Assembly: GCA_964635195.1 (NCBI GenBank)
Contig: CAZWNC010000002.1
Coordinates: 3,444-67,443, forward strand
DNA from: an uncultured Candidatus Saccharibacteria bacterium
GTDB lineage: Bacteria > Patescibacteriota > Minisyncoccia > Phycocordibacterales > UBA12088
Direction of reading: 5' to 3'
DNA length: 64,000 nucleotides
Numbering within the stretch: position 1 is the stretch's first letter; each line of letters begins with the position of its first letter. The notes beneath the pieces were generated by a model. It did not search any database. It saw nothing but the letters and a program-made list of their open reading frames with translations, and had not been told where the DNA came from. Made by a program: the position numbers and the translations under genes. Shown here one piece after another: positions 35,201 to 49,763 of this stretch.

Positions 35201-38200
35201 CAATAGTAGGTGGTGCCGGTCGTAAGAGCAGTTTGTACCGAGAAACGAATGCGATTACCTTCGGTAAAGGGTGAGGTATCCCCACCGGACGTCACATTGG
35301 TAAAGCAATTTGGCGAGCACCCCGTTTCGTTATCTGATGTGCGATCGGCAAGTGGCGAGGTGTCGAGATCTGCGTCATCATCATACTGTACCTGGTAGAC
35401 CAAGTCGGACGTGCCATCCAGATCGGTCGCGCTAAAATCGAGGTACGGGGTCGATGAACCGGTCTTCTCATTATTGAATGGCACATCATACATAGTCGGC
35501 ATTTCCGGCGAGAGGTTGAACGCCTTCCAGTACCCCAACAACCGATACTCATCAGCGGTCGTCGACTCCGCGTAGTATTCGATGGTGGCACTTGCGGTGT
35601 TGTCCGCCTGCACATGCATGCGTCCCATATTGAAGCCGGTCCCCGCACCGTCCGAGTATGCAAAATCGAGCGTGCGTCCCACCGCCGAACCGTTCGCATG
35701 CACACCGAGCACGTTCGACCCACTGGTGTTTGTGGAGTACGCAAGCAACACTTCGGCGATATTGTTCTTGTACGCGCCGTACCCGTCGAGTGCGCGATCC
35801 TGCCATACCGTCGCCGAGGTCGGTCCCGTGAAATCATCCAACCGCTCCTGATAGGTCAACTCGTCCGGCAACGTGGACCAGTACCCAAGCAAGTAGTAAT
35901 CGACCGAAGCGGCAGCCGCACCCTCGACCTGCGCATACCCCTGTATGGTAGCGTTCGACGTCGAGGCAAGTACGTTCATGGTGATGAAGTTGGCACCACC
36001 GTTTGCGCTCTGGTGTATTTTAACCAAGCGACTGAGCGTTGGTGCGGAGCTGTACCAACGCACACCCGCGTCATAGTCGGTACCTGCGGCAAAATTGGCG
36101 AGTGCCATTTCAACCACGTCTGCATCACCCACTCCGTATCCGGAAAGGTTGATGTTATTCCATGTCGCATCATTCGTGGTACCCAGATTTGGGTCGATGT
36201 TTACTAATCGCTCCACATAGGTACCACTCGTCCAATACCCAAGGATGGTGAAGGTTACTTCCGCCGCCACATCAGAGTACACCTGAATGGAAGAAGTCGC
36301 CGACGCCTGCACGTGCATCGTAACGGTTGACAAGCCGCCGGTCACGCCGGATTCATGGAGCAAAAGGTACCGGTTCAGTGTTGAGGTGGCGGTCGAGCGC
36401 ACACCACCATACCGTTCACGGTTGTTACGACTGTTGGTAATGGCGACTTCAACAATCGCATTAGCCGGTACTCCATAGCCTGCGAGGCTTACCGTTCCCC
36501 ATGTGTCATCACTGGCTGCACTGAATGTCTGGTACATCTCGGTATAGACCGCGAGTGCGTCCGACGCAAGCTTCCACTGGCGCGCCTCGACAAATGGCAA
36601 TCCACTGCCCGAACGTACTTCCGCAGGACCGAGGAGGTAGAGATACGGGGAAACATCCGGTGCGTCGTACTCGTAGGAAAAGGTCTGTGTCTCACCGGCT
36701 GTAAGGTCGACGGTCCAGGTAAGGCGTTTTGCGCCGCCCCACACACTCGTCTCTGCGCCACCTGCGTGCACCAGCACAAAATTTTCCGGTACCGCCTCAA
36801 CGAATTGTCCCGTGAAGTCGCTCGTCGCAGTAAGCTCTAGCTCCATCACGTACGATGCCTTGGGCCAGATACGTGTCGCACCACTGCGACGAATGGTGAA
36901 CGGCACCGACTCACGTACTTCAAACGCGTCACTCACCCGGTGCACCACCTCTCCATTTAGGTTTACGTGCGTCAATTGCAAAGTGTATGTCCCCACCGTA
37001 CGCGGGCGGTACCACGCAAGGTAATCGGGGTCATCGGTGACATTGTTTGCTCCACACGTACCCTGTGGTTCCACCCCCACTTCCTCGGCGTTACCCTCAG
37101 GATCCGTCACGGTCAGATGCAGTTCTGCGTTACAGATCGTATCACCCTTGTCGTCGAGGGCCGCCATATGAAATTCAATGGAATCGTCGGGCAGATAGAT
37201 GGATTGTGGCGTATTGATCGCAAGTACCCCCCAGTAGAAATCAAACGAATCGGTAAAAACGGTGCCGAGCTCATCGACACTGATCTCGAGGGTATAGAGA
37301 CCCGGTTGAATAGCTCGCGGCATCTCGGTCATACGTATCGTCCACTGCCCCTCGGTGCCATAGATGACCTCGAACCGCGCATCCTCAACGCGTACTCCGC
37401 CATGCAGGAGGTGTACCTCACCAACCTGCGCCAAGCGCTCACGGAATAGCCCCCGGAAGAAACGATTCACGACACCCTTTTGCGCACGGTACTGCAACGC
37501 AAACTCCGGTCGATCACCAAGCTCAAAATCGCGAAGCGCTTCGCGAAATGCGTGGAAGCGGGGGTCACGTAACTCTCGCATATACGCAATCCCTTGGAAG
37601 AGGTCCGGTCGAGCAAGTGGTTCATACACCGACACCGCGGGTATCGGAAGTTCCTCCAATACACCAAACACAAAGGTAGATGACGCGAGACGATATCGTT
37701 CAAACAATGTGGACACGCGTCCGTCCGCCAAGCGTGTTTCGGTCGTGTGCATATCTTCGGGGAGTACAAATGAAAGCGTGCGGACTCCCGCGGCATACTC
37801 ACTCAAAGCGGGGGTAAGTGAGATAGGTCCGCGCGCAGAGAGTCGCTCAGCGGCATGTGGTATGAATACGTCACGTGACGCACCAAAGGAAAGTGGTGAC
37901 ACGTCAGCATCATCGGAAAGCGTGACACTATTTTCGTCTCGTTCACTCACCACGGACACGACCGCACCTTCCTCCGGCTCCGCAAGACCCAAATACTCGA
38001 TGGGCGAAGCAGTCAACGCAGGCGCATGAAGCCGTGCAGCCTCGTCGACCTGCTCGTTACCAAAGTAAGCGTACAGCGATGTTGTACCGCGCGATCCGCC
38101 ATCAGATAGTTCGACGGCATACTGCGCTTCCTGATCGACGTACGTATACCTGAACTCTTTGACCGGAATCTCCGTTCGTGTACCTGCGTCAAAAAAACGT

Positions 38201-40593
38201 ATATCCCTGCCGTCGAGTGCCGCGTGTGTAAAAAGGTCTGCGAGTGTGCGGTCGACACTCACTTCATACAGCGTCGGTATGTCGCCCTCATTCACATCAC
38301 CATGCGGAATAAGGGTGAGAGGCATGCGATACTTGAAAGCGCTTCGCCACCACACACTGCGCGTCGCATCACCCTCGTCACTGCGCGCCTCGATCAGCAA
38401 TTCCCCTGCTCGCTGAACCGGAAAGGAAAGGTCGATCGCAAAAAACCGAGTTTCATTGGCCATGAGCGCAAACTCCTCATCGGTCGCATACCCGTTTGAG
38501 AGATTGGGAGCAACCACCACCTCAGGTGCACCACCAAACAATCGAGCGAGTATACTCCCTCCTTCTGCGCGTTCCGCTGCAAGAGGAGATATCGCCACCT
38601 CCTGCCACGCACTCTCATAGGCGAGTGCTGCATCGACTGACACGCGCTCGTTACCGACAATACAGTTGGTCTTGTCCGCATTGAAACTGTTACACACCTC
38701 TGTCTCACCCGTCGCCTTGCACGTGTACGTTGTTGAGAGTGAAAGAGCGGCATCGTACGCAGCATCATCAAAAGCGGCGCTATCCTGGGGCGATACCGTG
38801 TTATCTCCAGATTCTTGTGTTCCCGAAGTTGCCCCTTCGTTCGAAACGACGGTATCGCTTGTCACCTCACCTGCATCATTGTTCGGCACATCCACTCCGT
38901 CTTGGGTATCCTGTCCCGCTACTTCCGCATTCGGCATAGCCTCAGACTGAGCATCGTCAACAGGTGGTACGGCATCACCGGTCGGAACGAAGGCCTCGTC
39001 ACGTGCCACTTCGTCACTCTCATCTGTCTCCCCACTTTCAACCGCGGTCTGCGAAACGGTCACATCACTCGCCATGGCGTCTGTAGCAGATGTCTCCTCA
39101 CCATCACCTAGCTTCCACCCGCTTTCACAGAAGTACGCCACTTCACTGTAACTTGGTGTCATGTGTGTTTGCGCGACATCTTCAACCCGCTCCAGGACGC
39201 GCACGACCTCGGCCTGTCGACCGAGGTGTGTGACCAAACTGAAGGATGTGTCTTCATCGGAACTGTTGGTCACGGCAATATATGCACGAGCTGAAGTGAG
39301 GCCGTCATATATGTCGGCATCGCTTCGAAGTACCAACTGTTCCCCGAGCGTCTCTTCGGTTTCCGTAAGTTCAATGCGCTTGTTATCCGCAACGAGCAAG
39401 TCCGGCCGCGCAGAATCTTCCAACACCGCGAGCTCCTCCACGATATTGTCTGCAACAGGAAGGGCTTCGTCTGCGGACGCAACCTCATACAGCGTGTCAA
39501 CCCACACACTATCCAAGAACACTTCGGTACGAACGGTGCTATTGCGCACAAACTCCACCTCCACCTTGAAGTCCTGCAGTGCGTCCCATGCCGCAAGGTC
39601 GGGAAGCGGAAAGGAAAGGTGACCACCGCCGTTCGCATTTGAGAGTTCGCGATCGATATACACCTGCCCCGCGATACGCCACTCACCTCGGTAGTGATAG
39701 CGCACCACGATGGAATCCGGTGTGAACGGCTCCCCGAACGTGCGCGCGGCAAGCGAAAGGCGGAGTGTATACCCTTTAATCGTATGCTCAGAAAGCACGC
39801 TTCCAATATCAAACCGTTCAAAGAGGAGCGTATGGCATTCTTTACCGAGTACCGTACAGCTTCGCATATCCTCTTCGGGACTCCGTGCAAACGAACGTGA
39901 CTCTTCGATGTCCACCGTATCCGCATCGCTCGAATCCGTATCATCACCCTCTTGTGACACTACGGTATCGATCGCTTCAGGCGCACTTTCTGTGACCATT
40001 TCAGTATCAGAGTCCGAAACGCCCTCACCTACTGAAACATCCTGATTAAACATGACGGCAGTACCTTCATCTTCAGCACGTACCGTGCGACCGACAAATC
40101 CCCGAAGCGTGTCAAAAAGATACGCAGACGGTGAGACATCCGGAATCGGAGTCGTGGTGTCCTCTTCGACAGGTGCAACCGCGTCAACAGGCTCTGCGCC
40201 CTCCTCCGACGCGGCCTCATCCTGTACTTCCGCATCACCCCACTCACCCTGTGTCGGTGTGGGAGTATCGACGAGATCCTGTTGTACGCCTGTCGTACGA
40301 TCGCCGGTGTCACCCTCGGTCACTATTACAAATGCACCATTATCGCGCGTGAAGTCATCAAAGGTTGCGCGTTCACCCAGCGCCTGCTCCAGTGCATGAT
40401 TCTCCTTCTCCCATCCTTCACCCACTACTGAAACAGGAAACACATGTATCAAACGCTCCTCGATACCCGCAAACGCGGAAACAACGTACATGGCACAAAG
40501 TGCAAGGAGAAAAAACACACCGCGTGTTTTGTATCGTGTGAATACTTTGCGATGCATGCCCATACCAGAAAAAACGGCGTTCGCCGGCCTCAT
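20242..40593 (-). CDS. Giant 6,783-aa modular cell-surface protein. N-terminal signal-anchor, acidic linker, duplicated FN3-like plus beta-propeller-like supermodules, three ~790-aa beta-helix-like tandem repeats, DUF2341-like and LamG-like jelly-rolls, and a Cys-rich C-terminus
   Basis: A single stop-free frame runs 20,352 nt. A hydrophobic segment GVFFLLALCAMYVVSAFAG sits near the N-terminus. Motifs recur with divergent sequence, including YYWRVRAKD...GEWS three times and LYS[QM]DH..GDL[YF]I[YW]G.Y.R.SG..YWS..TDF[DE]G three times. Near the C-terminus is a DUF2341-like stretch SWNDLRFTDNSG..LPHFIES...ATVWVKIP...IYLYYDND. No catalytic motif was seen. Confidence 0.9.
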   Translation of the reverse strand: MRPANAVFSGMGMHRKVFTRYKTRGVFFLLALCAMYVVSAFAGIEERLIHVFPVSVVGEGWEKENHALEQALGERATFDDFTRDNGAFVIVTEGDTGDRTTGVQQDLVDTPTPTQGEWGDAEVQDEAASEEGAEPVDAVAPVEEDTTTPIPDVSPSAYLFDTLRGFVGRTVRAEDEGTAVMFNQDVSVGEGVSDSDTEMVTESAPEAIDTVVSQEGDDTDSSDADTVDIEESRSFARSPEEDMRSCTVLGKECHTLLFERFDIGSVLSEHTIKGYTLRLSLAARTFGEPFTPDSIVVRYHYRGEWRIAGQVYIDRELSNANGGGHLSFPLPDLAAWDALQDFKVEVEFVRNSTVRTEVFLDSVWVDTLYEVASADEALPVADNIVEELAVLEDSARPDLLVADNKRIELTETEETLGEQLVLRSDADIYDGLTSARAYIAVTNSSDEDTSFSLVTHLGRQAEVVRVLERVEDVAQTHMTPSYSEVAYFCESGWKLGDGEETSATDAMASDVTVSQTAVESGETDESDEVARDEAFVPTGDAVPPVDDAQSEAMPNAEVAGQDTQDGVDVPNNDAGEVTSDTVVSNEGATSGTQESGDNTVSPQDSAAFDDAAYDAALSLSTTYTCKATGETEVCNSFNADKTNCIVGNERVSVDAALAYESAWQEVAISPLAAERAEGGSILARLFGGAPEVVVAPNLSNGYATDEEFALMANETRFFAIDLSFPVQRAGELLIEARSDEGDATRSVWWRSAFKYRMPLTLIPHGDVNEGDIPTLYEVSVDRTLADLFTHAALDGRDIRFFDAGTRTEIPVKEFRYTYVDQEAQYAVELSDGGSRGTTSLYAYFGNEQVDEAARLHAPALTASPIEYLGLAEPEEGAVVSVVSERDENSVTLSDDADVSPLSFGASRDVFIPHAAERLSARGPISLTPALSEYAAGVRTLSFVLPEDMHTTETRLADGRVSTLFERYRLASSTFVFGVLEELPIPAVSVYEPLARPDLFQGIAYMRELRDPRFHAFREALRDFELGDRPEFALQYRAQKGVVNRFFRGLFRERLAQVGEVHLLHGGVRVEDARFEVIYGTEGQWTIRMTEMPRAIQPGLYTLEISVDELGTVFTDSFDFYWGVLAINTPQSIYLPDDSIEFHMAALDDKGDTICNAELHLTVTDPEGNAEEVGVEPQGTCGANNVTDDPDYLAWYRPRTVGTYTLQLTHVNLNGEVVHRVSDAFEVRESVPFTIRRSGATRIWPKASYVMELELTATSDFTGQFVEAVPENFVLVHAGGAETSVWGGAKRLTWTVDLTAGETQTFSYEYDAPDVSPYLYLLGPAEVRSGSGLPFVEARQWKLASDALAVYTEMYQTFSAASDDTWGTVSLAGYGVPANAIVEVAITNSRNNRERYGGVRSTATSTLNRYLLLHESGVTGGLSTVTMHVQASATSSIQVYSDVAAEVTFTILGYWTSGTYVERLVNIDPNLGTTNDATWNNINLSGYGVGDADVVEMALANFAAGTDYDAGVRWYSSAPTLSRLVKIHQSANGGANFITMNVLASTSNATIQGYAQVEGAAAASVDYYLLGYWSTLPDELTYQERLDDFTGPTSATVWQDRALDGYGAYKNNIAEVLLAYSTNTSGSNVLGVHANGSAVGRTLDFAYSDGAGTGFNMGRMHVQADNTASATIEYYAESTTADEYRLLGYWKAFNLSPEMPTMYDVPFNNEKTGSSTPYLDFSATDLDGTSDLVYQVQYDDDADLDTSPLADRTSDNETGCSPNCFTNVTSGGDTSPFTEGNRIRFSVQTALTTGTTYYWRVRAKDTSGSNSFGEWSAVQSFTYVSGTDPKAWYQSEDAQFDDGTLISTETYGENKVRIATTPPVGAMVAYGEGAGTTPRYRTWSGTAWSSEGSAQDVGGRISWTVLESSPTRNEYVLGTQDVNSDVNVQVYNGTAGTWSTATELNPNQTSIDRRGFDIAYQSLSGNAVAVFCYNSGTNYEASYSVWNGTNWSATSTIDLQFNAPCSWIKLAASPSSDEIVMVAQADSANTTSDFEVQVYRDETTKWNITSYTGGANTLGEEMFERMAVEWEESGEEAVVALGNGGGQTPGIVGAVWNSAAETWTAYTSRNTQDDFEWGELVADDGTNNLGLCYIDEDAQVQIAYWNGATNAWDTYVAGTTQVDNDGKGSATYHARPISCQYETTTGRDGYLMIPYSDETNARYRVWTGSSFAATEQSITTIEDSWTAGSVRTGDGKILAVFRDDTNDRFDFSYWNGSGWSSRETLETSMPDDTSPYAEPIALAPQRYQASVGNIVSPIVDFDLVVGQSSWGEALWSATEPSNTSVEVQVLWAAAASSTCTAVVPNGVLPGNEDGFAATSSPLDLSGIATTTDYNRLCLKATLTSNTNESPTLDDWTISWERQPYLTQTHYKWFANTSGITPTDAYPSGAYNLIEDEAIGASHAPSSGEVLRLRLAIEDTNVTLAATTAMWSLQWAEGAQCSASLSWQQVGAIGSSEPWRGYNNAPADGTTLSTTTLSTTDVLLSYEEENNTATNTSAIADGEEAELDFVLQHNATSSTNYCFRLVNADGTTLNDYDRYPQLVTNAPPVAPTLATPFTYEALASSSPWFTFVAEDGKGDVLDYQIEVDDDYTFGSQEIESTSENDNSEFKNIISTNDLAPFNSGETVRFVPTTSLADGTYWWRVRAKDTNGSGEWGEWSLPWSFTASSSITISTWHQTTFEQFEQDDLESTEATSTNDIVLTPPLTEGTSTSPMIDFDWRTTGNAWGTLDWADAENAGDIKYHLEYYTEATGAWALIPDSALPDNVAGHDVTQPISLLSLDPSVYSKIRVRANFRDLGGAKPRLNSWTISWGLAVEQPTLDTLFDNEKVGTTTPSFTFYSTDPQGDNLQYEFQWSSTPDFAASTTRRSGVHAGFVNTASSTDTSQFVEGDTIQFTIQSADALTNGATYWWRVRAIDSDIGGGDAWSVYSPVRSFTVDTSVLVSTWYQTTDEQFDTALLNSTETYGSDEVRITSTIREAMTAYVEGNIQTPRYRIWNGQAWGTEKSAQNVSERIDWVRVDAAPTRNEYLMATEGASGKVVAQVYDGDTASWSDLVTMVPTVSNVAYRGYDITYESLSGRAMVVACSGQDAVYRTWDGTDWSGTSTINLTIAQNCEWIQLAADTDSNEIILMARFNNAGTADYEAQVWNGSGTWSNSTLVGNAGAATDEGMAVMYEDSGTDAVIVFSNGTNNNFASKRWNGSWQATTTTAIGNDHNKASMCRDLGTDRITVVYTDEDTDIGYAEWDGTTNAWGASTELEVDGVNEINNQVSCQYETTAGREGNVLFTYGDGVVTTEQYRVLDRTTPVTIAQNVSTLGEAYSAFTARTGDGNILGLYYDDDADDYFFSYWNGAQWSVAQQLESDGNTQAVRREPLHLVARRYTAYTSGSIVSDPVVFTDGTGPRWGIASSTDTTDDGYILYQIEYSNDAGETWALIPDEALPGNGVGTTSNRIDLTNVSYATYGTIRYVANFVCVSGDCPVLHDWTISWSEGITISGTIKQYDESTPVASGGDVRVAVNGVLQAGKIGTISGGTWSIANVTMFPSDVITVFIDGVGDSQEAAAVTRYDGFGNMTGVELFERHLTIGSQDATTTSNANIALYDYTSSGDEDLFFDVDTGNDLYVATSSAGYYDTKLYVASSSTYRPDSANSGTLYAHDVVIRGTTTADSNTFYVHGSWNNTGIFAAGNGTVVFTATSSLETIDSSGASEYAFNTLTFGQSGTATWTLASLLDVNKNLTVTYGTLSVSASDMIIGGNLSFALGTTFVKGTGTTTFDGATTPVTITDSTASKQDLGAVHVNGSSKSVALQSAVKLTDLTIATANSFDVSALNYPLEVRGYFRNYGSFGARAGTVTFTATSTSNPIYPGASSFWNLTANGVGGNWYFEQPTVTIGNTLTVATGTLTLALGTTTVSGNLTNTGGVLQHNGGTVELAGAGAKTIYQNGSPLQNITVSGTGSWSWTDTNATTSGTVRVGNGTLTLPSGTFAIGKSLINTGGTIAHNSGTLRFTSYIAETIRTNGSNLHTVLFDGAGGTFTLADTNLSASGTVRFVQGTTTLPSGTFTVGGSFLTTGGTWAHGNGAVFFNSSATGHTINPGQNAFNQVTFNNASGGWTVSSNATSTGAWTIANAASFTAGSGVTIEVLGTFTNSAPSATTWDGSALYLNSGTGYTVGTKTQNAEGYGTLRIGANTDIRMWQASSTGAVVEQTGSLYSQDHAAQDGDLYIYGTYERTSGADYWSHATDFDGTGIGGSPRQVDVRFASGAAARFSNATLHVVGGASASTTISNQGSGSYGLSVENGTVTAQYYSMTDMDTHGFSILGSSTVTSLSDGVYTLTAVGASSTMLTVSSTTIDANPMFQIQRVAFSTSTGITEGYNVTASGTASSYWWFRNHNGNYDGEDYDSDPVVGAGSLRWDDSGFTIDVSGTVYAGEGIGGAPATCNGSTQVLRLVVSGGATYDTHCDAGTGTFTFNDVTYSGDVSLVAFVFGTTTKAAVVSRSPQSDITGFDLYEHRVIVRHESVDALTIANMMPYDSDQHADVPFDAESGMLTVSPETSLHVWTGKTFAPGGNVTLQSGGSGAGYDGTLRLASGSTFTAVGSESHSIGGSFIADASATFTAAQSTVTLNATTTGKTVAPSSSFYNLTFSGADGAWTIASSTTVGNAMTVSDGTVSGAVNLNVQNGALSGDGTLAFSAGTVTVGKGGTFGGANDWTFNNLTLGDGTAYTTTKNGNGNVLVTGVLTVAATHVLDAGSVNWTLNGAGAVLSVAGTFTANTSTTTFAGTSAMTVPALAYHHLVLAPSGAGSPTYTLSGGTPSAATLSVGNGTNPVTVNVTASNPLLTVSGMVWIRANATYSAANTNDLLIGGSYVNQGTFTSNGGGVVFNATETGKTITPGLSSFHHLTLNGVGGGWTMLGSATTTGNFLLTSAAAYTQTSGTTLSVQGVFTNTVGGGATTWDGSTLYLQSGTAYPMNTKTAGGDVYGTLRVGANTDVNMWNSTSTVYTVDRTGSLYSQDHDGEDGALYIWGDYVRASGNEYWSYETDFDGTALGGSPRTVQVRLAPNATTTLTGGTWNIVGTSTMSTTSIATQGGGTYALRVTGGTFNAQYYKIRDISATGLEFSGSPTVSQLSDGDLELSIQGGTMLTVAGSVISANPIKRWDRISFATSTGIASGYNASTTGVSTSFWRFTPALGNYYGEMHDGDSAPDPDPGYLIWDDSNSQITISGNVYSNESGSVSSLCTGASVVTLVLDGVSPQTTSCAPGTGAYSFTNISMPVSVVTVYLDGVAGKAAHVLVDPVLTLTDMHLYENRVVVRHEDVNPVTIAHMATYDSSDDTDIPFDANDGVSDTLTVSANHKLIVWTGKTFTPGGDVTLNSGGTGTEYDGTLELRDNASYISSPTVAQAITIGGSWLTGTGATFTAGTSTVTFTATTSGKLVSPNSSAFNNLTFNGSGGVWTFTDRDATTTRHFTISAGNVTLGTSTLSVGGSFVNSATMSAASTSIRFSSAQAQTVAFGGYAVGSLTFAGAGAHTMTDTQATSTGSVSITAGSVALPSGTFAIANGFSAQGGTFSHSGTLRMYGTLTTQTLRFGASAARHLAIAGTGSWAFADTHATTTGTTTISSGGLTAPAGTFAVGGSFVNTGTFNSNAGLLYLYATTTGQTITASSSLFSNVVLRGVGGGWTVTGSATTSGMWRLQQGASFTLASSTMLEVGGVFENAFASTTTDWTNSTLYLNASGTAYTVNTRNTGGDTYAYLTLGANTDVRMWDSAAATTTVPSTGSLYSMDHGGTSGDLFIWGEYVRSTGSDYWSYATDFEGGAPIGGSRQVDVRIASSSSLSFTGGTLEIVGTESATTTIAVAGTGTYAFAKSGGTLNAQYYSFRNLNASGLVLTNALTVTSLSYGDFERAESGGYLLQVASTTIDQNPTKVIASVRFGTTTGVSGVANIKRNGTSTNANFWDFRNHMGEIDGEAYDDDGIDACGSIRWDDSTCLEFSQTHFRFRNDDGTDGAPDSEWYDSNWNKRKRVHVTNPNAGALTNTAVRFEVAYEVGDMQTSWNDLRFTDNSGTTSLPHFIESYTAATATVWVKIPSVSANDTGFIYLYYDNDFAANAESGSNTFTFFDDFEDDDLTGYTGNTTQFDAIAESGGEGAYTLHAASGQEENFTTGGLYQTTTTFGPGSTIRFLQYVDENYEDQPCTLFGVGGSGSNYAVCLTQYPSDRLVIAEDVTNRATAALTLASTTVTWTSGWYTVEVDWLSGGTLYASVYDSVGALFATTTASDLSHTSAGGSGFSFWTQHGAWDFYTARPYLANEPTVWVGLEQEKGGASWKAAQDTSVTVDQGQPFRVRFSIENSGPQEWGKEWRLQYADKTGYGTCNAVPSVNFDTVPGTSAACAGSDSPVCMTTTSGYVDQGQTQALLVPTTLLPFTAGRLIEADSNQTASTTLPQGYTTEVEYAVELTADAISNAYCMRVSDGDSELDSYQTLAEVTANYGPQINEWVFNGSTVMDPNPIVLMEGETTSIVATGTVSDLNGGETLLYATSTFYRTDVGPDCAANPNNCYQLNSLECPLTCAPSGTTCEVTCTADIQYFADPTDWGDYSAETWEARLFIMDDTLNEASSTSDGAEVGSMLAMSVVSGDIAYGALEMGASTTAQTNASSTIQNTGNIAVDLELEGTDLTSGASTIPVGNQKFSTSSFTYSACVICGALSGTASTLEVDLPKAMAAETPVTDVLYWGIYIPTTGVSGATHRGQTTFYAVGD
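22510..24180 (-). repeat. Beta-helix-like tandem repeat unit 3 of 3 (C-terminally truncated; approximate bounds)
   Basis: Anchor LYSMDHGGTSGDLFIWG is encoded near 23158. The unit starts VTFTATTSGKLV. Confidence 0.5.
24180..26760 (-). repeat. Beta-helix-like tandem repeat unit 2 of 3 (approximate bounds)
   Basis: Anchor LYSQDHDGEDGALYIWG is encoded near 25470. The unit starts VTLNATTTGKTV. Confidence 0.5.
26760..28940 (-). repeat. Beta-helix-like tandem repeat unit 1 of 3 inside the giant ORF (approximate bounds)
   Basis: Anchor LYSQDHAAQDGDLYIYG is encoded near 27860. Upstream of it are GGT-rich ~44-aa mini-repeats. Confidence 0.5.
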
Positions 40594-40987: not shown

Positions 40988-42502
40988 CTATTTCAACAAC
41001 TTGCGCACATCCTCGATCTCTTTGTCGATGAGTTCCTCTGAAATATCGAGTGCGTCTTTGAGTGACTCAAGTATGTTACGCTCGTTATCGGTCATGTTCG
41101 GCTTATGGGAAAGCGCGAGCACCTTTTCTTCGATTTCGTCGCGAAGTACACCGAAAATGTTGATGAGTTTGTCGCCCGCTTCTGCCGCTTCACGCTTGAT
41201 GCGATCCTTCTCTTCGGTATGTCGCCGTCTATCTTGAATGAGAATCGTCACAACGACCGCGAGACACGCCATGAACAGAAGTGATACCCAATATATGGCG
41301 CTAAACCCACTTGTCTTTACCTCGGTGGTCTCCACCTGCTTACTCACACCCGTCACCTCAACCTCCACTGAAGCATCACGTGTGTTACCAGCACGATCGC
41401 GCGCAATGACCTGTATGATATGTTTACCCGGCTCGAGGTTCGCCACAGTAAACGCCCCTCCGACAAGCTCAGAGGGCTGTACATCCCGGGGACGCCCGCC
41501 GTCGATAACAAGCTGGTACAGGTCAAGGCCGGAAAGTGTGTCGACCGCCTCAAACCTCGCTTGCGCGGTATTGTCACCTCCGACACCTGTGACAGTAAAT
41601 TCTTCGGGGGGTGTGGTGTCAATACGAATTGCGTAGTGTGTTGAGGAGCTCCAACCGCCACGATTCTTGTAAGAGATATGAAAATACCACACGCCATCAG
41701 TAATTCCGCTCTTTTTCCATGACGCTATTGGCGGTTCGTGCGCTTCTGCCGGTTCGCTTTCTGGCACATCATCAAAGCCGGCCTTCATTCCGGTCACACC
41801 GTAGGGAATATCCCATGCAAGCACCGCCTCCGTGAGGTTATACCAGACAGCCTGGTCGGGGTGCGAGGTACTCTTCACCACCGGTGCGTCCGGCGCGGGA
41901 ATATTGACCTGTCGTTCCTTGGGTGCGGCCTTGGGTGGCGTCACAGGGGCTGGTGCGGCAGGTGCGGCAGGAGTAATAGTGAACGATCCCCCTGCAGGAG
42001 TACCGGTCAGTTTGTTCGCTCCCCCAACAAGGAGCTGCGGGGCTTTAAAAGAAATCTGTGCAGTCCCCTCTTTTTTCGCACGAAATGTGATTGTAAAGAT
42101 AGTGGCACGCCCGCTTGCGGAACCCGTCGTACCGCACCCAAACTCAATCGTTCCTGCTGTATTGTTGGGTGTGGGTTCCGGAGTACACAAGCTAAACGCG
42201 GCATCTTTTGTTGCCGAAACAACAGTGAGCAGTGCCGGATCGAACGTCACACTTCCGCCGGTCGTGAGTCCCCGTAGCGACTCTCCGGCTGTATCGGCGG
42301 CCACTTTTACCTGAAACGACTGTCCAACCGAGTATGAACCGCTTGCGGGCGTAAGCTCATACGTCGCGGCATGTGTTTGAACAAACGACACCAAACATGC
42401 GGCTAACAAAAACGATACCCGCAGTAGTAGGGTCAGAATCGCTGAATACGGCCGTGTACCTGTCGCATTCGTAGTGTAGTGTGGTGTGCATTGCTCGCTC
42501 AT
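40988..42502 (-). CDS. Membrane-anchored cohesin-domain protein (signal/TM, cohesin-like domain, Pro-rich linker, beta-sandwich domain, C-terminal TM, cytoplasmic coiled coil); start moved to MSEQCT
   Basis: A cohesin-like stretch GSVTFDPALLTVVSATKDAAF...AGTIEFGCGTT...RATIFTITFRAKKEGTAQISF. Linker PAAPAAPAPVTPPKAAP. C-terminal TM FSAIYWVSLLFMACLAVVVTIL followed by a KE-rich coiled coil. The ORF-track N-terminal extension would overlap hsp20. Confidence 0.7.
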   Translation of the reverse strand: MSEQCTPHYTTNATGTRPYSAILTLLLRVSFLLAACLVSFVQTHAATYELTPASGSYSVGQSFQVKVAADTAGESLRGLTTGGSVTFDPALLTVVSATKDAAFSLCTPEPTPNNTAGTIEFGCGTTGSASGRATIFTITFRAKKEGTAQISFKAPQLLVGGANKLTGTPAGGSFTITPAAPAAPAPVTPPKAAPKERQVNIPAPDAPVVKSTSHPDQAVWYNLTEAVLAWDIPYGVTGMKAGFDDVPESEPAEAHEPPIASWKKSGITDGVWYFHISYKNRGGWSSSTHYAIRIDTTPPEEFTVTGVGGDNTAQARFEAVDTLSGLDLYQLVIDGGRPRDVQPSELVGGAFTVANLEPGKHIIQVIARDRAGNTRDASVEVEVTGVSKQVETTEVKTSGFSAIYWVSLLFMACLAVVVTILIQDRRRHTEEKDRIKREAAEAGDKLINIFGVLRDEIEEKVLALSHKPNMTDNERNILESLKDALDISEELIDKEIEDVRKLLK

Positions 42503-42519
42503 AGCAAGGAGCGAGTGAT

Positions 42520-43014
42520 TTACTCGCGTGAGTGTTGCTCGTCGACCCGCACCACGTTGAGGCGCAGACCCTTTGATGCCCGGCCGACAAGCGGTAAGCG
42601 CAGTGCGAGTACCCCGTCTTTTGTTTTTGCTTCGGCACGCTCCGGATCGATCTGGTCGGGAAGAATAATCTGACGATAAAAGTCGCCCCAATGACACTCC
42701 TCGAGAGTGTAGTCGCCATTTTGTGTGCTGTGGACTTCGTGCATCAGACTCTCTGGACGCGCTGCTGAGCCTTGAATGTTCACGACGTCGTTCTCACCCG
42801 AAATAGAAACATCGAGCGTACGCATATCCATGCCGGCAAGCTGCGCATAGATAATGATTTCATCGTCGGACTGAAACACGTCAACGGGAAGCTGGAGTGC
42901 GTGTTCGGGCACGACTTCTTGCGAACCACCGTGCTGCGTCGACGCACCTTCAGTCGGTCTGCCGCTTTGATCGACCAGACCTTTGCCTTTGAGTTTATCC
43001 ATGAATGTACCCAT
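42520..43014 (-). CDS. Hsp20/alpha-crystallin family small heat-shock protein
   Basis: 164 aa with an ACD core VDVFQSDDEIIIYAQLAGMDMRTLDVSISGENDVVNIQGS...GDFYRQIILPDQIDPERAEAKTKDGVLALRLP. Confidence 0.9.
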   Translation of the reverse strand: MGTFMDKLKGKGLVDQSGRPTEGASTQHGGSQEVVPEHALQLPVDVFQSDDEIIIYAQLAGMDMRTLDVSISGENDVVNIQGSAARPESLMHEVHSTQNGDYTLEECHWGDFYRQIILPDQIDPERAEAKTKDGVLALRLPLVGRASKGLRLNVVRVDEQHSRE

Positions 43015-43177
43015 AAGAAATAATGAACTTAGACACTAATGAACATGCGTGACGGTCTGACGCCCGGGAGACGTGAGATCGTTGATGTGATAAGTATAGC
43101 ACGACACCTGCATGCGGCAGCTGGAAAACAACCGGACTACGTGTGGATAAACCTTAAAACCTACATGAGAAACATAC

Positions 43178-45064
43178 TTACCCCGTCCAATGGTACAGCA
43201 TGATGGAGAAGTCGGGCAACGAGACAAGACCGTCTCCGTTGATGTCTGCCGCCGTACTTGCCGTGTTCCAATTGAAGAGCAGTATCGAAAAATCGACCAG
43301 GTTCACAAATCCGTCACAATCAAGGTCGCCCTTTCCGATACAGCCGGTATCGGCAACTTCCACCCCAATACCAATCGTCAATCGCGCACTCTTGTCACTC
43401 TCTATACCACTTTCCATTTTAGCCTGAGCAACCAACTCGTAGGTTCCTTGCGAAAGACCGGTCGAAGGTAGGGTGAGTGTCCACGCACCATTCGTTGCTG
43501 CGGTCGTCGTGGCCAGTATGTCACCTACCGACACCTGCGCAAGGCGTGGGCGAAGCCATACGCTGATGTTCGCGCGCGGCACCGAAAAGCCGGAAACCGG
43601 CACGGTCGATCCGGGCTCAATCGAACGATTTGCCACCGTGACGGTAGGTGGAAGGAGTACGTTGGCGAGAGTGGTCACCGTATCGGAACGGATCCAAAGC
43701 GTGGTCGTGTACGAGGCGCCTCGCACCCCTGTTGAGTCCGTGCCCGATACTGCGTAGGTGTACGACCCGCGATCCATTTGCTCGCTGGTATAATTGAATG
43801 AACCGTCACTTCCCGCATTGATGTCACGCGCGAGGGTGCCATCACGCACAATCGACACCACCCCGTTCGGATACCCCCAACCCGTTACGCGCACACCCGC
43901 CTGTGGTAGTTTGGTGCCTACATCCGAACTACTGCCACCCCCTCCTCCACTTCCACTCCCCGACCCGTCTCCACCGCTTGCACTGGAACCGGAGCCAGAA
44001 CCAGAGGCACCGGTTCCGGAGCCCGAACCGGTGCCTATGCAGTCAACGCCAACACAAGTCGACGAAGCGGTTGTCGAAGCGATGCCGGTACCAACCGCGG
44101 TACCGGTCGACGTGGATGTGGTTGTGGCGCTTCCCGGTGGAATACCTATCGTAAAAGTGAGTTCGTAGGCGGGGTCGATGATGTTCATGCGGTAGTCGCG
44201 ACATCGGACAAAAAACGTGTAGGTCAAGGCGTTCTCAAGCCCCGTTTCAATCGCAAAATGCCACGCCGAGTAGCCGGTGGTAGTAGTAGATACGAATGAA
44301 TACGGCATATCGAGATAATCCACGCTCGAGGTGGCGTAGCGACAAATCGCTTGCTCATTAGTCCGCACGAACATCTGGACACCCTGCGTACCCGCTTGCA
44401 GCAAACCGGAGGGCATGGACTCAAGTATGATCGGCGCCTCCTGGTCAGTCGTGTCTGCGGGACCGGCAGTCACTTGTGACACCACCGCGATCATCGTACG
44501 CCCGTAATCTATCTCAGCCGCTCCGTTTGCGGTGTATGTGGTGATGGTCACAGGATACGAACCGGTGGCGTGGGTCAGTACCATGTTACTATTACCACTC
44601 CCCACTGCAGTCGTCCCGATACGCACTTCAACCTCGTAACCCGCTCCGATGCCCACACTCGTATTAAGGTCAAAACGTATCATACCGTTCGTTCCGGTAG
44701 TTACCGACACACCGTCGGTTGCGGCGTTGCGAGTGGCGGAAAGTGGACGTGAGGTAAACGAAACGGTCGAGGTACTTCGAAAGCTCAGATCGATATCGGC
44801 ATAATTGAAGCCGCTTGCGGGAACCGTAAAACCACCGCCGGTAAAGTCCAGCACAATTCGCCCCCCCGCGGGGATTGCCTGATTTGTTCGGAAGGTGATG
44901 GTCTGCGCGGCAGACGCACTCGGTGCACTGGTCGACAGCAAGTCACGCACGTACGAAAGGTACACCGTCGCACTGACCTGTGTTCCTACATATAGAAGCG
45001 CACACATTCCGACACCAAAAAAACTGGCGACTGTTGCGGTGCGATGGGAAACAATCTTTTTCAT
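43178..45064 (-). CDS. Secreted multidomain protein with a C-terminal dockerin-like module (signal peptide, N-terminal beta-rich domain, Gly/Ser linker, two Ig-like domains, dockerin)
   Basis: Signal MKKIVSHRTATVASFFGVGMCALLYVGTQVSA. Linker GSGSGTGASGSGSGSSASGGDGSGSGSGGGGG. C-terminus GDLDCDGFVNLVDFSILLFNW...ADINGDGLVSLPDFSIMLYHW, which is two Ca-binding dockerin repeats. Confidence 0.75.
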   Translation of the reverse strand: MKKIVSHRTATVASFFGVGMCALLYVGTQVSATVYLSYVRDLLSTSAPSASAAQTITFRTNQAIPAGGRIVLDFTGGGFTVPASGFNYADIDLSFRSTSTVSFTSRPLSATRNAATDGVSVTTGTNGMIRFDLNTSVGIGAGYEVEVRIGTTAVGSGNSNMVLTHATGSYPVTITTYTANGAAEIDYGRTMIAVVSQVTAGPADTTDQEAPIILESMPSGLLQAGTQGVQMFVRTNEQAICRYATSSVDYLDMPYSFVSTTTTGYSAWHFAIETGLENALTYTFFVRCRDYRMNIIDPAYELTFTIGIPPGSATTTSTSTGTAVGTGIASTTASSTCVGVDCIGTGSGSGTGASGSGSGSSASGGDGSGSGSGGGGGSSSDVGTKLPQAGVRVTGWGYPNGVVSIVRDGTLARDINAGSDGSFNYTSEQMDRGSYTYAVSGTDSTGVRGASYTTTLWIRSDTVTTLANVLLPPTVTVANRSIEPGSTVPVSGFSVPRANISVWLRPRLAQVSVGDILATTTAATNGAWTLTLPSTGLSQGTYELVAQAKMESGIESDKSARLTIGIGVEVADTGCIGKGDLDCDGFVNLVDFSILLFNWNTASTAADINGDGLVSLPDFSIMLYHWTG

Positions 45065-45095: not shown

Positions 45096-45452
45096 TCACT
45101 TCATCGATCTCCTTCGCACATGATCAAGATAGAAGTTGAGCAGTATGAGACCTAAAAGCACGCTTCCAATGATACTCACGATGAGCATCGTACGCGTATC
45201 GGGTCGACTTTTAACCTCACGTAAGGCCGCTTCCCGCGATTCAAGCTCACGAGCGCGAGCCTCGAGCTGTGCCGCGGTCGCACTGTACTCGTTTTCTGGA
45301 ACACTCGCAAACACACCGATAGTCTGTGCGCGTTGCTCCTCCTTGTGAAGGTCGCGCACATCGGTACCTATGAGGAGCGCGTACGCCGAAAAAACCAACA
45401 ACGTCGCAAGCAACAATATCTTGCTATCCCCGCGAGAATACCGCCAAAACAT
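45096..45452 (-). CDS. Small membrane protein (two TM helices flanking a coiled coil); start moved to MFWRYS
   Basis: Hydrophobic N- and C-terminal helices flank AAQLEARARELESREAALREVK. Confidence 0.4.
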   Translation of the reverse strand: MFWRYSRGDSKILLLATLLVFSAYALLIGTDVRDLHKEEQRAQTIGVFASVPENEYSATAAQLEARARELESREAALREVKSRPDTRTMLIVSIIGSVLLGLILLNFYLDHVRRRSMK

Positions 45453-45720: not shown

Positions 45721-46944
45721 CTACTGGAAAAAAACGATAGTACCGAGCGATATCAGCACCAGTACCACAATAAGCCACAGTAGGACACGAGATACCCTGC
45801 GAGCAAACGTCATATCTTGTCCGACTGCACGCTTCGAAGGTGCAGTATGTCCCGCACGTTTGAGTTCGCGACGAATGTATGAGCGCAATACTCCAAAGGC
45901 GAGTGCCACAAGAGCCGCACAGGCACCGGCAACCACCCCTATTTCCTTCCACGGAAAGATCCAAAAGGTAAGTTCGTCTTTCAACGTCTTTTGCGCCGTA
46001 TCACCATACCCGACGTTTAAGAGTGCGGTGTACCTGCCGAATGCAAAAGAATCAACAGTCCATGCGGCTTCAAACGCACGTTCGGAACGGGGTAAAATGG
46101 CGTTTTGTTGTTTCTCATTGAATACAATCTGACCCACCTCTTTACCCAGCATGTTTTTGACAACAATAACTCCACGTGGTTTCTGATGTATGGTACCGGT
46201 GTTTTCGACGCGTGTGGTAAACAGTATGCTGGGTTCGGTATAGAGAGAACGATTGGTGAAAAACTCGTGCAGGATCATGTCATCGATCACCTCTCCACTA
46301 ACCCGTAAGTTCACGAGCGTACCGACATTAAAACCCACCCCTGCACCGTTTTCCGCAGTGCCCTCAGCCTCCCGCATGACAAAAATAGCAGCTGCGTGGG
46401 TACCGGGAGAAGCATCCCCCGGCACAGTAATACGATACGGTACCTCTGCAGATCCTCCGACCTCTATCGTCACTGAATCTTGAAGCGGCATAATCCATGA
46501 AGCCAAGCGAAGCGAATCAGGCTCCGTTTCTCGCGAAAAAACAGGACGGCCGTTCTGCTCCATGGTGTCTATATTGCGAACATCGATCCGGTAGGTTTGC
46601 GTGCCTCCATTTTCGTTTGTTACCACAATCGAACCTTCGATAGTGGCACCCGGGTCGACACTCTCTTCTACAACGCTTGGCTGCACTTTCACTGATATCC
46701 CATCGGTCGCGTACGTATACACAGGAAACAGTAAGAGCAGTGCGGAAAACAGGGCAAGGTATCGTGTGTGTGTGTGAGTAGTACTAGCATATCCAACTAA
46801 CCCGGAGACTGCTCCACTGATATGCGTCACAAGAGACTGCTCCAAGGGCGCTTTTCGGGTCTTATTCTCTTGTGTGACGCACCGGCTTCGCTCACAGTCG
46901 TACTCCTTGTGGTTATTTGGGGATGGTATAATACAGGTATTCAT
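45721..46944 (-). CDS. Secreted, C-terminally TM-anchored surface protein, paralog 1 of 3 (CscA/DUF916-DUF3324-like architecture)
   Basis: Signal-like RYLALFSALLLLFPVYTYA, a conserved PGDASPGTHAAAIFV block, and a C-terminal YTFWIFPWKEIGVVAGACAALVALAFGVL anchor. It is homologous to the ORFs at 48390 and 49760. Confidence 0.6.
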   Translation of the reverse strand: MNTCIIPSPNNHKEYDCERSRCVTQENKTRKAPLEQSLVTHISGAVSGLVGYASTTHTHTRYLALFSALLLLFPVYTYATDGISVKVQPSVVEESVDPGATIEGSIVVTNENGGTQTYRIDVRNIDTMEQNGRPVFSRETEPDSLRLASWIMPLQDSVTIEVGGSAEVPYRITVPGDASPGTHAAAIFVMREAEGTAENGAGVGFNVGTLVNLRVSGEVIDDMILHEFFTNRSLYTEPSILFTTRVENTGTIHQKPRGVIVVKNMLGKEVGQIVFNEKQQNAILPRSERAFEAAWTVDSFAFGRYTALLNVGYGDTAQKTLKDELTFWIFPWKEIGVVAGACAALVALAFGVLRSYIRRELKRAGHTAPSKRAVGQDMTFARRVSRVLLWLIVVLVLISLGTIVFFQ

Positions 46945-48389: not shown

Positions 48390-49763
48390 TTAAGGCTGCG
48401 GAATCGGCATCTCTATCTGGTCACCTGTAGCACGTTCTTCTGTTGCTCGAAACGGCCGCTCGGTGGTGAGTACGTCGGAAAAATAGGCGTGCAACGCGAG
48501 TATGCACAATACCCCGAAGCACACGAAGAGGAAGAATGAACGATAGGTGCGTATGAACGTGCGCATTTCCATGGGGTGTACCGCATGTGTGTCGTGAGGG
48601 GTCGAAACGCCACCAACCCGCCGCAAATCGACCATACTCGCGCGTATCGGTCGTACAAGCGTTTTTAATCGCAATGCCTGACCGGTGTCGATGTCGTACG
48701 TTCGAGTAGCTGATGTCGTGTCACCGGAAACCGCAGGGTTTACGACTGCACTCACCTGCTCGGCACTCGAAACACGCTCAAGCGCAAGAGCCCGTCGGAC
48801 ATATGCGCGTATCGCCCACGCAATGAAGCGAAACACCAAAAAAGCCGCTACAGAGAGTTCGATGAGCGGTATCAAGGGCAGCACCCAGAAGTACGTGGTC
48901 GAGTGCGCAAACTGCTTACTCGTAAGTCCGTACCCAAGAGTCACTTCTGCACGGTATCTGCCGATGTCCCAAACGCCCGCGTCCGAATCCCACGTAAACG
49001 CGTACGAACGGATACTGTTTGGAAGCACATTACCAAAGCCGTTTGTTTGGTTAACGGCTATTTCGCCGCGTTTCTTGCCAAACATGTTGTATATCGTTAT
49101 CGCTCCTTGCGGCTGTAGATGGACATTTCCGAGATTTTCAAACCGGAGCGAGAGTCGTGCACTCGCACGTTCATACAAAGAACGTTCCGTTACAAACTCA
49201 CGCACCCTCCCCCGCTCTACCACGTCACCCGAGACTCGCATAAGCACAAGTGAGGCGATGGCACTGGTTACCGCCACAGTCCCCTCTTCGCGAGCACTGT
49301 CATCCGGTGGACGATTTCCGATAAGCATGGCCGCGTAGTGCCCGCCCGGTGCAGCGTCACTTGGCACCGTGAGTGTAAAGGGGATCTTCAAAGTACCCTC
49401 ACGCACTATCAATTGACCCTCGGCCGGCGCGGTAATCCATGATGCGGACGTGCCTTTTTCAAATACCGGCACACCGCTACTTGCACGTGTTGCATGTATA
49501 AAACGAGGACGGCCGCTTTCCCCGGTCGGCTCAAAACCAACCGGCTCCGCATACACCGTCATATCGTACGGATTACTGTTAACAACGGTTATTTCACTCG
49601 ACCAGGTCTCCCCGGGTGCGATGGATATCTGGAAGAGAGGTGGCGTCACCGTGAATGTCATAGATCCAGCACTACCGGCGTGGGCAAACGGGGCAACACA
49701 CAGGAACAAACAAGAGACGCCGGTCAGCACCAACACATGAGCAAGAAAGAGACGAAAGATCAT
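48390..49763 (-). CDS. Secreted, C-terminally TM-anchored surface protein, paralog 2 of 3
   Basis: Signal MIFRLFLAHVLVLTGVSCLFLCVAPFAHA, block PSDAAPGGHYAAMLIG, C-terminal YFWVLPLIPLIELSVAAFLVFRFIAW anchor. Its start overlaps the stop of the upstream paralog (ATGA-type coupling). Confidence 0.6.
   Translation of the reverse strand: MIFRLFLAHVLVLTGVSCLFLCVAPFAHAGSAGSMTFTVTPPLFQISIAPGETWSSEITVVNSNPYDMTVYAEPVGFEPTGESGRPRFIHATRASSGVPVFEKGTSASWITAPAEGQLIVREGTLKIPFTLTVPSDAAPGGHYAAMLIGNRPPDDSAREEGTVAVTSAIASLVLMRVSGDVVERGRVREFVTERSLYERASARLSLRFENLGNVHLQPQGAITIYNMFGKKRGEIAVNQTNGFGNVLPNSIRSYAFTWDSDAGVWDIGRYRAEVTLGYGLTSKQFAHSTTYFWVLPLIPLIELSVAAFLVFRFIAWAIRAYVRRALALERVSSAEQVSAVVNPAVSGDTTSATRTYDIDTGQALRLKTLVRPIRASMVDLRRVGGVSTPHDTHAVHPMEMRTFIRTYRSFFLFVCFGVLCILALHAYFSDVLTTERPFRATEERATGDQIEMPIPQP

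Follow-up and report, generated by a model that had tools for sequence, protein, structure and literature searches.

A conserved gene trio of Patescibacteria encoding a dockerin-bearing secreted protein, Hsp20 and a cohesin-bearing membrane protein: a candidate surface-anchoring module

The locus and the genes in question

The subject of this work is a locus of three co-directional genes in a stretch of 64,000 nucleotides (nt) of DNA, hereafter called the window, which comes from an uncultured bacterium deposited as Candidatus Saccharibacteria (GenBank assembly GCA_964635195.1, contig CAZWNC010000002.1, positions 3,444 to 67,443). All three genes lie on the minus strand, at the coordinates that an earlier reading of the same DNA, made from its letters alone (the sequence-only reading), had given them, and they encode a secreted protein that ends in a predicted dockerin (dock628), a small heat-shock protein (Hsp20) and a membrane protein that carries a cohesin (coh504). 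The window is a segment of a bacterial chromosome with genes for GAPDH, RNase J, CorA, PBP2, MraW and RelA/SpoT. The closest genome record is a metagenome-assembled genome of Candidatus Paceibacterota (76% protein identity), and the relatives all come from Patescibacteria (Paceibacterota, Parcubacteria, Kaiserbacteria and Falkowbacteria). The trio and its modules are as follows, with lengths in amino acids (aa) and the basis of each assignment in brackets; AF2 stands for AlphaFold2.

43178..45064, minus strand: dock628, secreted protein of 628 aa (open reading frame (ORF), Pfam, AF2, 111 full-length orthologs)
43181..43333, minus strand: dockerin module of dock628, aa 578-628 (Pfam Dockerin_1, NCBIfam dockerin_GC (weak), motif scan, AF2)
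43015..43177, minus strand: gap of 163 nt that separates dock628 from hsp20; in relatives it measures 160-650 nt (sequence read)
42520..43014, minus strand: hsp20, 164 aa, cytoplasmic small heat-shock protein with an alpha-crystallin domain (Pfam HSP20, hydropathy)
40988..42502, minus strand: coh504, type I membrane protein of 504 aa (Pfam, AF2, hydropathy, orthologs)
41969..42370, minus strand: cohesin module of coh504, aa 45-178
41348..41887, minus strand: FN3-like domain (aa 206-296) and Ig-like Big_13 domain (aa 297-385) of coh504, a stalk shared with relatives that have no cohesin (AF2, Pfam Big_13 (weak), PDB profile match)
40991..41302, minus strand: membrane helix (aa 401-423) and 81-aa cytoplasmic two-helix tail (aa 424-504) of coh504 (AF2, hydropathy)

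Pfam scores are given against the curated cut-offs (24.1 bits for Cohesin PF00963, 22.9 bits for Dockerin_1 PF00404 and 20.8 bits for HSP20 PF00011). The two ortholog families, both of uniform length, comprise 97 matches for coh504 and 113 for dock628 (111 of them full-length, 533-657 aa). Gene order was compared in 19 distinct cohesin-bearing loci including the window, the full trio being found in the window and in 16 related loci, and five loci of cohesin-less tail proteins were sampled; the fetched loci, about 518 kb in total, were scanned for double dockerin motifs.

A cohesin on a single-pass membrane protein

From its N- to its C-terminus, coh504 is made up of a signal peptide, the cohesin, a Pro-rich linker, the FN3-like and Ig-like domains, the membrane helix and the cytoplasmic tail, and its 504-aa start agrees both with an identical NCBI protein and with the conserved 'MSE' start of the orthologs. 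A cohesin-like beta-sandwich had been proposed here from the letters alone, and Pfam bears this out with a Cohesin match of 30.3 bits (E=5.6e-7, aa 55-154); a precomputed PF00963 match is present in most of the 97 orthologs. In sequence and profile searches of PDB sequences, cohesins appeared only at E=0.3-0.7; confirmation of the cohesin needed a comparison of folds. The AF2 model (88 homologs; mean predicted local distance difference test score (pLDDT), 89) shows the module as a nine-stranded jelly-roll beta-sandwich that superposes on solved cohesins, the top Foldseek match being a cohesin-FN3 construct of Clostridium perfringens (2w1n). In type I cohesins, it is the 8-3-6-5 face of this fold that takes up the dockerin. 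Its elements are an N-terminal helix (18-38), the beta-sandwich (46-177), two more beta domains (209-384) and two C-terminal helices, a long one (402-465) and a second (472-503). Hydropathy finds hydrophobic segments at aa 18-43 and 398-426 only, and the signal peptide has an A-x-A cleavage site; these features fit a cohesin that is held outside the cell by a protein which crosses the membrane once and ends in a helical tail in the cytoplasm. The stalk matches the Ig domains of SiiE in a PDB profile search. The tail is the best-conserved region of coh504, with a mean pairwise identity of 63% versus 44-50% for the ectodomains. In the window's own clade the cohesin has, in addition, a 2-residue insertion at positions 77-78.

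A secreted protein with a C-terminal dockerin

The layout of dock628 is a signal peptide (1-32), two beta domains (33-310), a disordered linker rich in Gly, Ser and Thr (311-384), two Ig-like Big_13 domains (385-568) and the C-terminal dockerin. Hydropathy finds a single, N-terminal hydrophobic segment, and the AF2 model (pLDDT 85) is disordered at 311-384; for both proteins, the earlier proposal of a secreted dockerin protein and a membrane-bound cohesin protein with a cytoplasmic helical tail is in keeping with hydropathy and AF2.

Two dockerin Ca-binding repeats had been quoted at the end of this protein, and both are indeed there: repeat 1 consists of DLDCDGFVNLVD followed by FSILLFNW, and repeat 2 of DINGDGLVSLPD followed by FSIMLYHW. 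Each contains a 12-residue Ca-loop motif (D580-D591 and D607-D618) and a helix of the form DFSI[LM]L..W, for which AF2 predicts the helical stretches 589-597 and 616-627; the last three residues of the protein are WTG. The two tandem segments of about 22 residues, each with an EF-hand-like 12-residue Ca loop and a helix, are those of a type I dockerin. In all six translated frames of the window, the loop motif D.[DN].[DNS]G.{5}D has exactly two occurrences, both in the C-terminus of dock628, and a pair of such motifs 20-45 aa apart occurred in none of 200 shuffles. Pfam Dockerin_1 matches aa 578-622 with 22.7 bits (E=1.1e-4), 0.2 below its cut-off, and a precomputed PF00404 match exists in many orthologs; both modules of the supposed pair have matches to their profile models, and the two identifications made by the sequence-only reading hold. 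Of the 111 full-length orthologs, 110 retain one or both of the strict loops and 84 retain both, always at the extreme C-terminus, and the dockerin is the best-conserved part of its protein (mean pairwise identity 73%, versus 41-47% elsewhere), which argues for a conserved protein partner. A dockerin-only search for other cargo proteins in a database of 5.8 billion proteins returned only two short fragments.

For the dock628 model as a whole, the best PDB match in Foldseek is the S-layer glycoprotein csg of Haloferax volcanii (7ptp; E=2.4e-12, TM-score about 0.14). Since a cohesin and a dockerin are the defining modules of cellulosomes, a miniature cellulosome or another polysaccharide-degrading complex had to be considered, and we reject it as highly improbable. 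Searches of dock628 and the other cluster proteins with Pfam and NCBIfam found no catalytic domain, no glycoside hydrolase or other carbohydrate-active enzyme and no carbohydrate-binding module (CBM); there is only one cohesin and no multi-cohesin scaffoldin, and the modelled domains of dock628 are all Ig-like, with an archaeal S-layer protein as their nearest structural match. The non-cellulolytic, surface-protein context assumed by the sequence-only reading is the one found.

Are the cohesin and the dockerin partners?

Gene order bears on the question of partnership. The succession dock628, hsp20, coh504 is kept in 17 of the 19 distinct cohesin-bearing loci (16 and the window), down to 32-33% protein identity. 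The adjacency of the cohesin and dockerin genes, first noticed in the window, is therefore a conserved trait, and this raises the likelihood of a cognate pair far above what one locus by itself could support. A second comparison is offered by relatives of coh504 without a cohesin. A search with the tail alone among 1.84 billion representative proteins found 172 proteins, in which the tail is always C-terminal; among the 148 listed matches whose sequences were retrieved, two main size classes are seen, a cohesin form of about 460-620 aa and a cohesin-less form of about 330-400 aa, the latter keeping the FN3-like domain, the Ig domain, the membrane helix and the tail and aligning to coh504 from aa 204-207 through 504. 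A dockerin gene lies near none of the five cohesin-less relatives sampled, as against 17 of 19 cohesin-bearing loci (Fisher p about 0.006 for 0 of 3 informative cohesin-less loci versus 17 of 19, the loci not being phylogenetically independent). Within the window, no other cohesin was found among the other large ORFs and dock628 is the only dockerin protein, and in the roughly 518 kb of fetched loci the only double dockerin motifs are those of dock628 orthologs and of one unrelated ORF in locus L025 (Candidatus Nealsonbacteria, CP179889.1); to this extent the two modules are paired one to one. This ORF (2170-2868, minus strand) encodes 232 aa ending in a different two-repeat dockerin and lies about 8 kb from a 41-aa ORF that resembles the coh504 tail.

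On this basis we propose, with a probability of roughly 0.6, that the dockerin of dock628 and the cohesin of coh504 form a cognate pair and that the two proteins constitute a surface-anchoring module of Patescibacteria (Paceibacterota/Parcubacteria). The competing explanation is that both modules are real without being partners: the dockerin would bind another cohesin, a wall polymer, or Ca for stability only, the cohesin would bind other ligands, and the genes would be adjacent as members of a common surface cluster. Several observations speak for it and weigh against the cognate pair, to which the slightly sub-threshold Dockerin_1 score must be added. A mirror-tree analysis of 34 pairs gave no coevolution signal, the cohesin-dockerin correlation (r=0.50) being the lowest of the region pairs and the partial correlation falling to r=-0.16 after removal of the phylogenetic background; this result is uninformative because the dockerin hardly varies. 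In the clade of the window, the substitutions N79L, W106C and G123C replace family-wide residues of the cohesin while the partner dockerin is unchanged; the resulting Cys pair at positions 106 and 123 may replace a Trp-Gly packing with a disulfide.

The two genes can also be found apart. In L016 and L028, two of the loci with enough upstream flank, hsp20 and the cohesin gene are present and no dockerin gene lies close by; L016 keeps hsp20, the cohesin gene and the giant gene that follows it in the window, without the upstream genes, and L028 has two cohesin proteins (a fusion protein, P0312, described below, and a 581-aa protein 0.8 kb upstream) and no dockerin on its 12-kb contig. Conversely, L027, with a distant dock628 ortholog, retains genes resembling the upstream neighbours p385, p407 and p118 and has no hsp20 or cohesin gene downstream. 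L027 and L016 together show that p385-p407-p118-dock628 and hsp20-coh504 are separable units, usually juxtaposed, and the dockerin gene is tied more closely to the upstream p385-p407-p118 module than to coh504. Against this explanation stand the retention of a dockerin gene directly upstream in 17 of the 19 loci, the high conservation of the dockerin itself with the conserved protein partner that it implies, the lack of any other dockerin or cohesin in the window and in the related-locus flanks (save the dockerin ORF of L025 and the second cohesin of L028), and the missing dockerin neighbour of the cohesin-less relatives. Two real modules that do not bind each other appear to us unlikely.

Hsp20 and the cytoplasmic tail

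The sequence-only reading had described hsp20 as wedged between the two genes of the pair; this description does not hold, for no gene is linked more tightly to the cohesin gene than hsp20. In the window hsp20 lies 17 nt upstream of coh504, and in most loci where the gap was read the distance is 16-19 nt, versus 160-650 nt between the dockerin gene and hsp20. It adjoins the cohesin gene in every cohesin-bearing locus, in relatives down to 32% identity, although in some loci (for example L005, L016 and L028) the flanking genes change on both sides. Its product is recognized by Pfam HSP20 with 40.0 bits (E=4.4e-10) and weakly by the NCBIfam models Hsp20, Hsp14 and Hsp18, and hydropathy finds no hydrophobic segment in it.

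The 163 nt upstream of hsp20 contain, by eye, an extended -10-like box (TGcTATACT), followed by a 5' leader of about 75 nt whose end, before the ATG, is U-rich. A consensus scan found neither a sigma-70 site nor a terminator in 43015-43177, the promoter and terminator scan as such doing no better than on shuffles, and Rfam found no known RNA thermometer upstream of hsp20 and no match in the window as a whole. The region probably holds the promoter and 5' untranslated region of an hsp20-cohesin transcript, and the leader could be heat-responsive.

A connection at the protein level is suggested by the tail. P0312 (778 aa) is a natural fusion of HSP20, a cohesin, Big_13, the membrane helix and the tail, and by its layout both the Hsp20 part and the tail face the cytoplasm. 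The fusion is encoded on three contigs of one groundwater population (metagenome SRR1534154; at 7258-9594 of L028, and also in L029; proteins P0312 and P0363). In L030 and L031, moreover, hsp20 lies directly upstream of cohesin-less tail proteins. The fusion, the position of hsp20 before cohesin-less forms and the conservation of the tail together argue for a conserved cytoplasmic partner of the tail, for which Hsp20 is the obvious candidate. From these sequence comparisons it appears that Hsp20 is no interloper but a true partner of the cohesin protein, and we infer a contact between it and the tail. We also would mention that L025 (10016-10141, plus strand) encodes the 41-aa ORF noted above, which is closely similar to the last 40 residues of the tail and may be a tail remnant or a mini-protein.

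The alternative is that Hsp20 is functionally unrelated, an ordinary stress chaperone whose position reflects inherited order in small, highly syntenic genomes, with the tail binding some other cytoplasmic partner. Its resemblance to a standard alpha-crystallin protein is compatible with this, hsp20 precedes only two of the five cohesin-less relatives, and the fusion comes from one population and one lineage, so that it counts as one evolutionary event; these points count against a dedicated link between Hsp20 and the tail. They are opposed by the invariable neighbourhood of hsp20 and the cohesin gene despite the changing flanks, and by the shared cytoplasmic location of the two fused parts. 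An unrelated Hsp20 is to our mind a serious possibility, albeit the more doubtful view.

The larger gene cluster

The full conserved order is p457, p385, p407, p118, dock628, hsp20, coh504 and then, usually, a giant protein with DUF2341. The members outside the trio are the following.

20242..40593, minus strand: giant surface protein of 6783 aa with an N-terminal membrane/signal segment and DUF2341, directly downstream of coh504
45096..45452, minus strand: p118, small membrane protein in which a coiled coil lies between an N-terminal and a C-terminal membrane helix; its place next to dock628, on the upstream side, is conserved
45721..46944, minus strand: p407, surface protein with two beta domains and C-terminal membrane helices
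47023..48180, minus strand: p385, secreted beta-rich protein with no assigned family
48390..49763, minus strand: p457, paralog of p407 with C-terminal membrane helices; first gene of the conserved cluster

The conserved start of p118 is probably M58 of a 175-aa ORF. The paralogs p457 and p407 share 32% identity (E=2e-42), and both have repeated weak matches to WxLIP_PGBD (DUF916), which for p407 reach E=0.025, under the cut-off, and are weak also in two distant orthologs. The C-terminal motif DYTATLTYVATPVF of p385 prompted a comparison with WxL proteins, which was abandoned when Pfam WxL matched none of 11 orthologs; in a BLASTP comparison, p385 showed no similarity to the N-terminal domain of dock628. 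Across the cluster proteins, NCBIfam gave no named family beyond the weak dockerin and Hsp20 matches.

The giant gene that the sequence-only reading had seen beside the pair lies directly downstream of coh504. The only Pfam matches of its product are DUF2341 and Ig_Rha78A_N, and the six-frame motif scan found no dockerin motif in it. Homologous giant genes directly follow the cohesin gene in most related loci; two of them encode at least 5997 aa and at least 6622 aa, both running off the end of the locus. Upstream of the cluster lie two large ORFs (54962-59011, 1349 aa, and 59113-63951, 1612 aa, both on the minus strand) with no Pfam match at E<0.01. In L003/L004 and L026, one to three genes of the FGE-sulfatase type (formylglycine-generating enzyme-like) are inserted between the gene of the small membrane protein and the dockerin gene, and in L026 an ABC exporter is also encoded upstream of the dockerin gene. 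These genes may be a sign that the cluster is connected with post-translational modification or export.

A proposed mechanism and its significance

If the cohesin and the dockerin are indeed a cognate pair, coh504 would be exported, its signal peptide cleaved at the A-x-A site, and the protein held in the cytoplasmic membrane by its one C-terminal helix, with the Pro-rich linker and the FN3-like and Ig-like domains keeping the N-terminal cohesin off the membrane. The secreted dock628, an enzyme-free chain of Ig-like domains whose Gly/Ser/Thr linker is probably glycosylated, would plug its Ca-dependent C-terminal dockerin into this cohesin and so be retained at the cell surface, where it could act as a surface-layer or adhesin-like component alongside p457, p385, p407, p118 and the giant protein. 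On the inner side, the conserved 81-residue tail would engage a cytoplasmic partner, most likely the Hsp20 that is probably co-transcribed with it. The module and the giant protein may together have a role in host attachment or in the architecture of the envelope. The formation of a lattice by dock628 is pure conjecture.

A bolder version of this proposal may be considered, namely that the system is an undescribed transmembrane coupling device of Patescibacteria, built on a receptor-like protein that spans the membrane once, in which the ultra-conserved tail is a dedicated docking site for Hsp20, the two being co-transcribed and once fused, and in which the ectodomain of one large subfamily gained a cohesin to retain a surface-layer protein or adhesin tagged with a dockerin. 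We consider this speculative and rather improbable as it stands. If true, it would put a chaperone of the cytoplasm in physical connection, in one direction or the other, with the state of the cell surface or of host attachment, and would represent the first membrane-embedded cohesin anchor with a cytoplasmic partner.

Patescibacteria are ultra-small and mostly uncultured, and many of them are believed to spend their lives on other cells; the construction of their surface and their hold on hosts are largely obscure. A conserved pair of one cohesin and one dockerin is a tractable candidate for surface anchoring in these organisms and would extend cohesin-dockerin biology to a membrane-helix anchor outside polysaccharide degradation. 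The tight and once-fused link of Hsp20 to the tail is unexpected, and suggests that a small heat-shock protein has a specific client or docking site at the membrane. For protein engineering, the cohesin and the dockerin might be of use as a compact orthogonal affinity pair.

Comparison with known systems

Known cohesin-dockerin pairs outside cellulosomes include those of Clostridium perfringens, where the cohesins of GH84C and GH33 are matched by toxin-borne dockerins, and the cohesin of Archaeoglobus fulgidus (2xdh). Non-cellulosomal modules of both kinds form a known and widespread class, which Peer et al. (2009) surveyed, and binding has been demonstrated for archaeal pairs (Peer, 2009; Bayer, 1999; Haimovitz, 2008; all cited after PMC9012536). 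Like these, the trio has one cohesin and one dockerin, carried by proteins that have no part in the breakdown of cellulose. It differs from them in that the protein with the cohesin, coh504, crosses the membrane once and has a highly conserved tail in the cytoplasm, in the cargo dock628, which has no enzyme or toxin domain, and in the fixed order around hsp20 that is conserved across a large part of Patescibacteria. Among the papers searched for cohesins or dockerins in CPR (candidate phyla radiation) bacteria, Patescibacteria, Parcubacteria or Paceibacter, none describes this arrangement.

In cellulosomes, surface anchoring relies on the type II cohesins of SdbA, OlpB and Orf2p with SLH domains in C. 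thermocellum, and on ScaE with its sortase anchor in R. flavefaciens. The anchor of coh504, in contrast, is a membrane helix with a cytoplasmic tail and not SLH or LPXTG; neither scaffoldin, multiple cohesins, X-module, CBM nor enzymes are present, and the dockerin of dock628 is short, symmetric, type-I-like and of two repeats.

The WxL/Csc clusters of lactobacilli and enterococci combine DUF916/WxLIP proteins, which have a C-terminal membrane anchor, with WxL proteins. The resemblance lies in p407 and p457 as membrane-anchored two-domain surface proteins and in the multi-gene surface cluster of a single-membrane cell; it rests on the weak DUF916 matches, none of the 11 p385 orthologs having a match to Pfam WxL, and Csc clusters contain no cohesin, dockerin or hsp20. 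These matches hint at a distant relation of p407 and p457 to the Gram-positive Csc/WxL surface clusters. With csg of H. volcanii, dock628 shares its nature as a secreted Ig-like chain with a Thr/Ser-rich linker and a C-terminus that serves, by our proposal for dock628, as the surface attachment; csg is lipid-anchored by an archaeosortase, unlike dock628 with its predicted dockerin, and the TM-score reflects a generic similarity of multi-Ig proteins. Set against all these systems, what is new here is a membrane-helix cohesin anchor with a conserved cytoplasmic tail, a fixed trio with hsp20 that includes one fusion, and its wide conservation in Patescibacteria.

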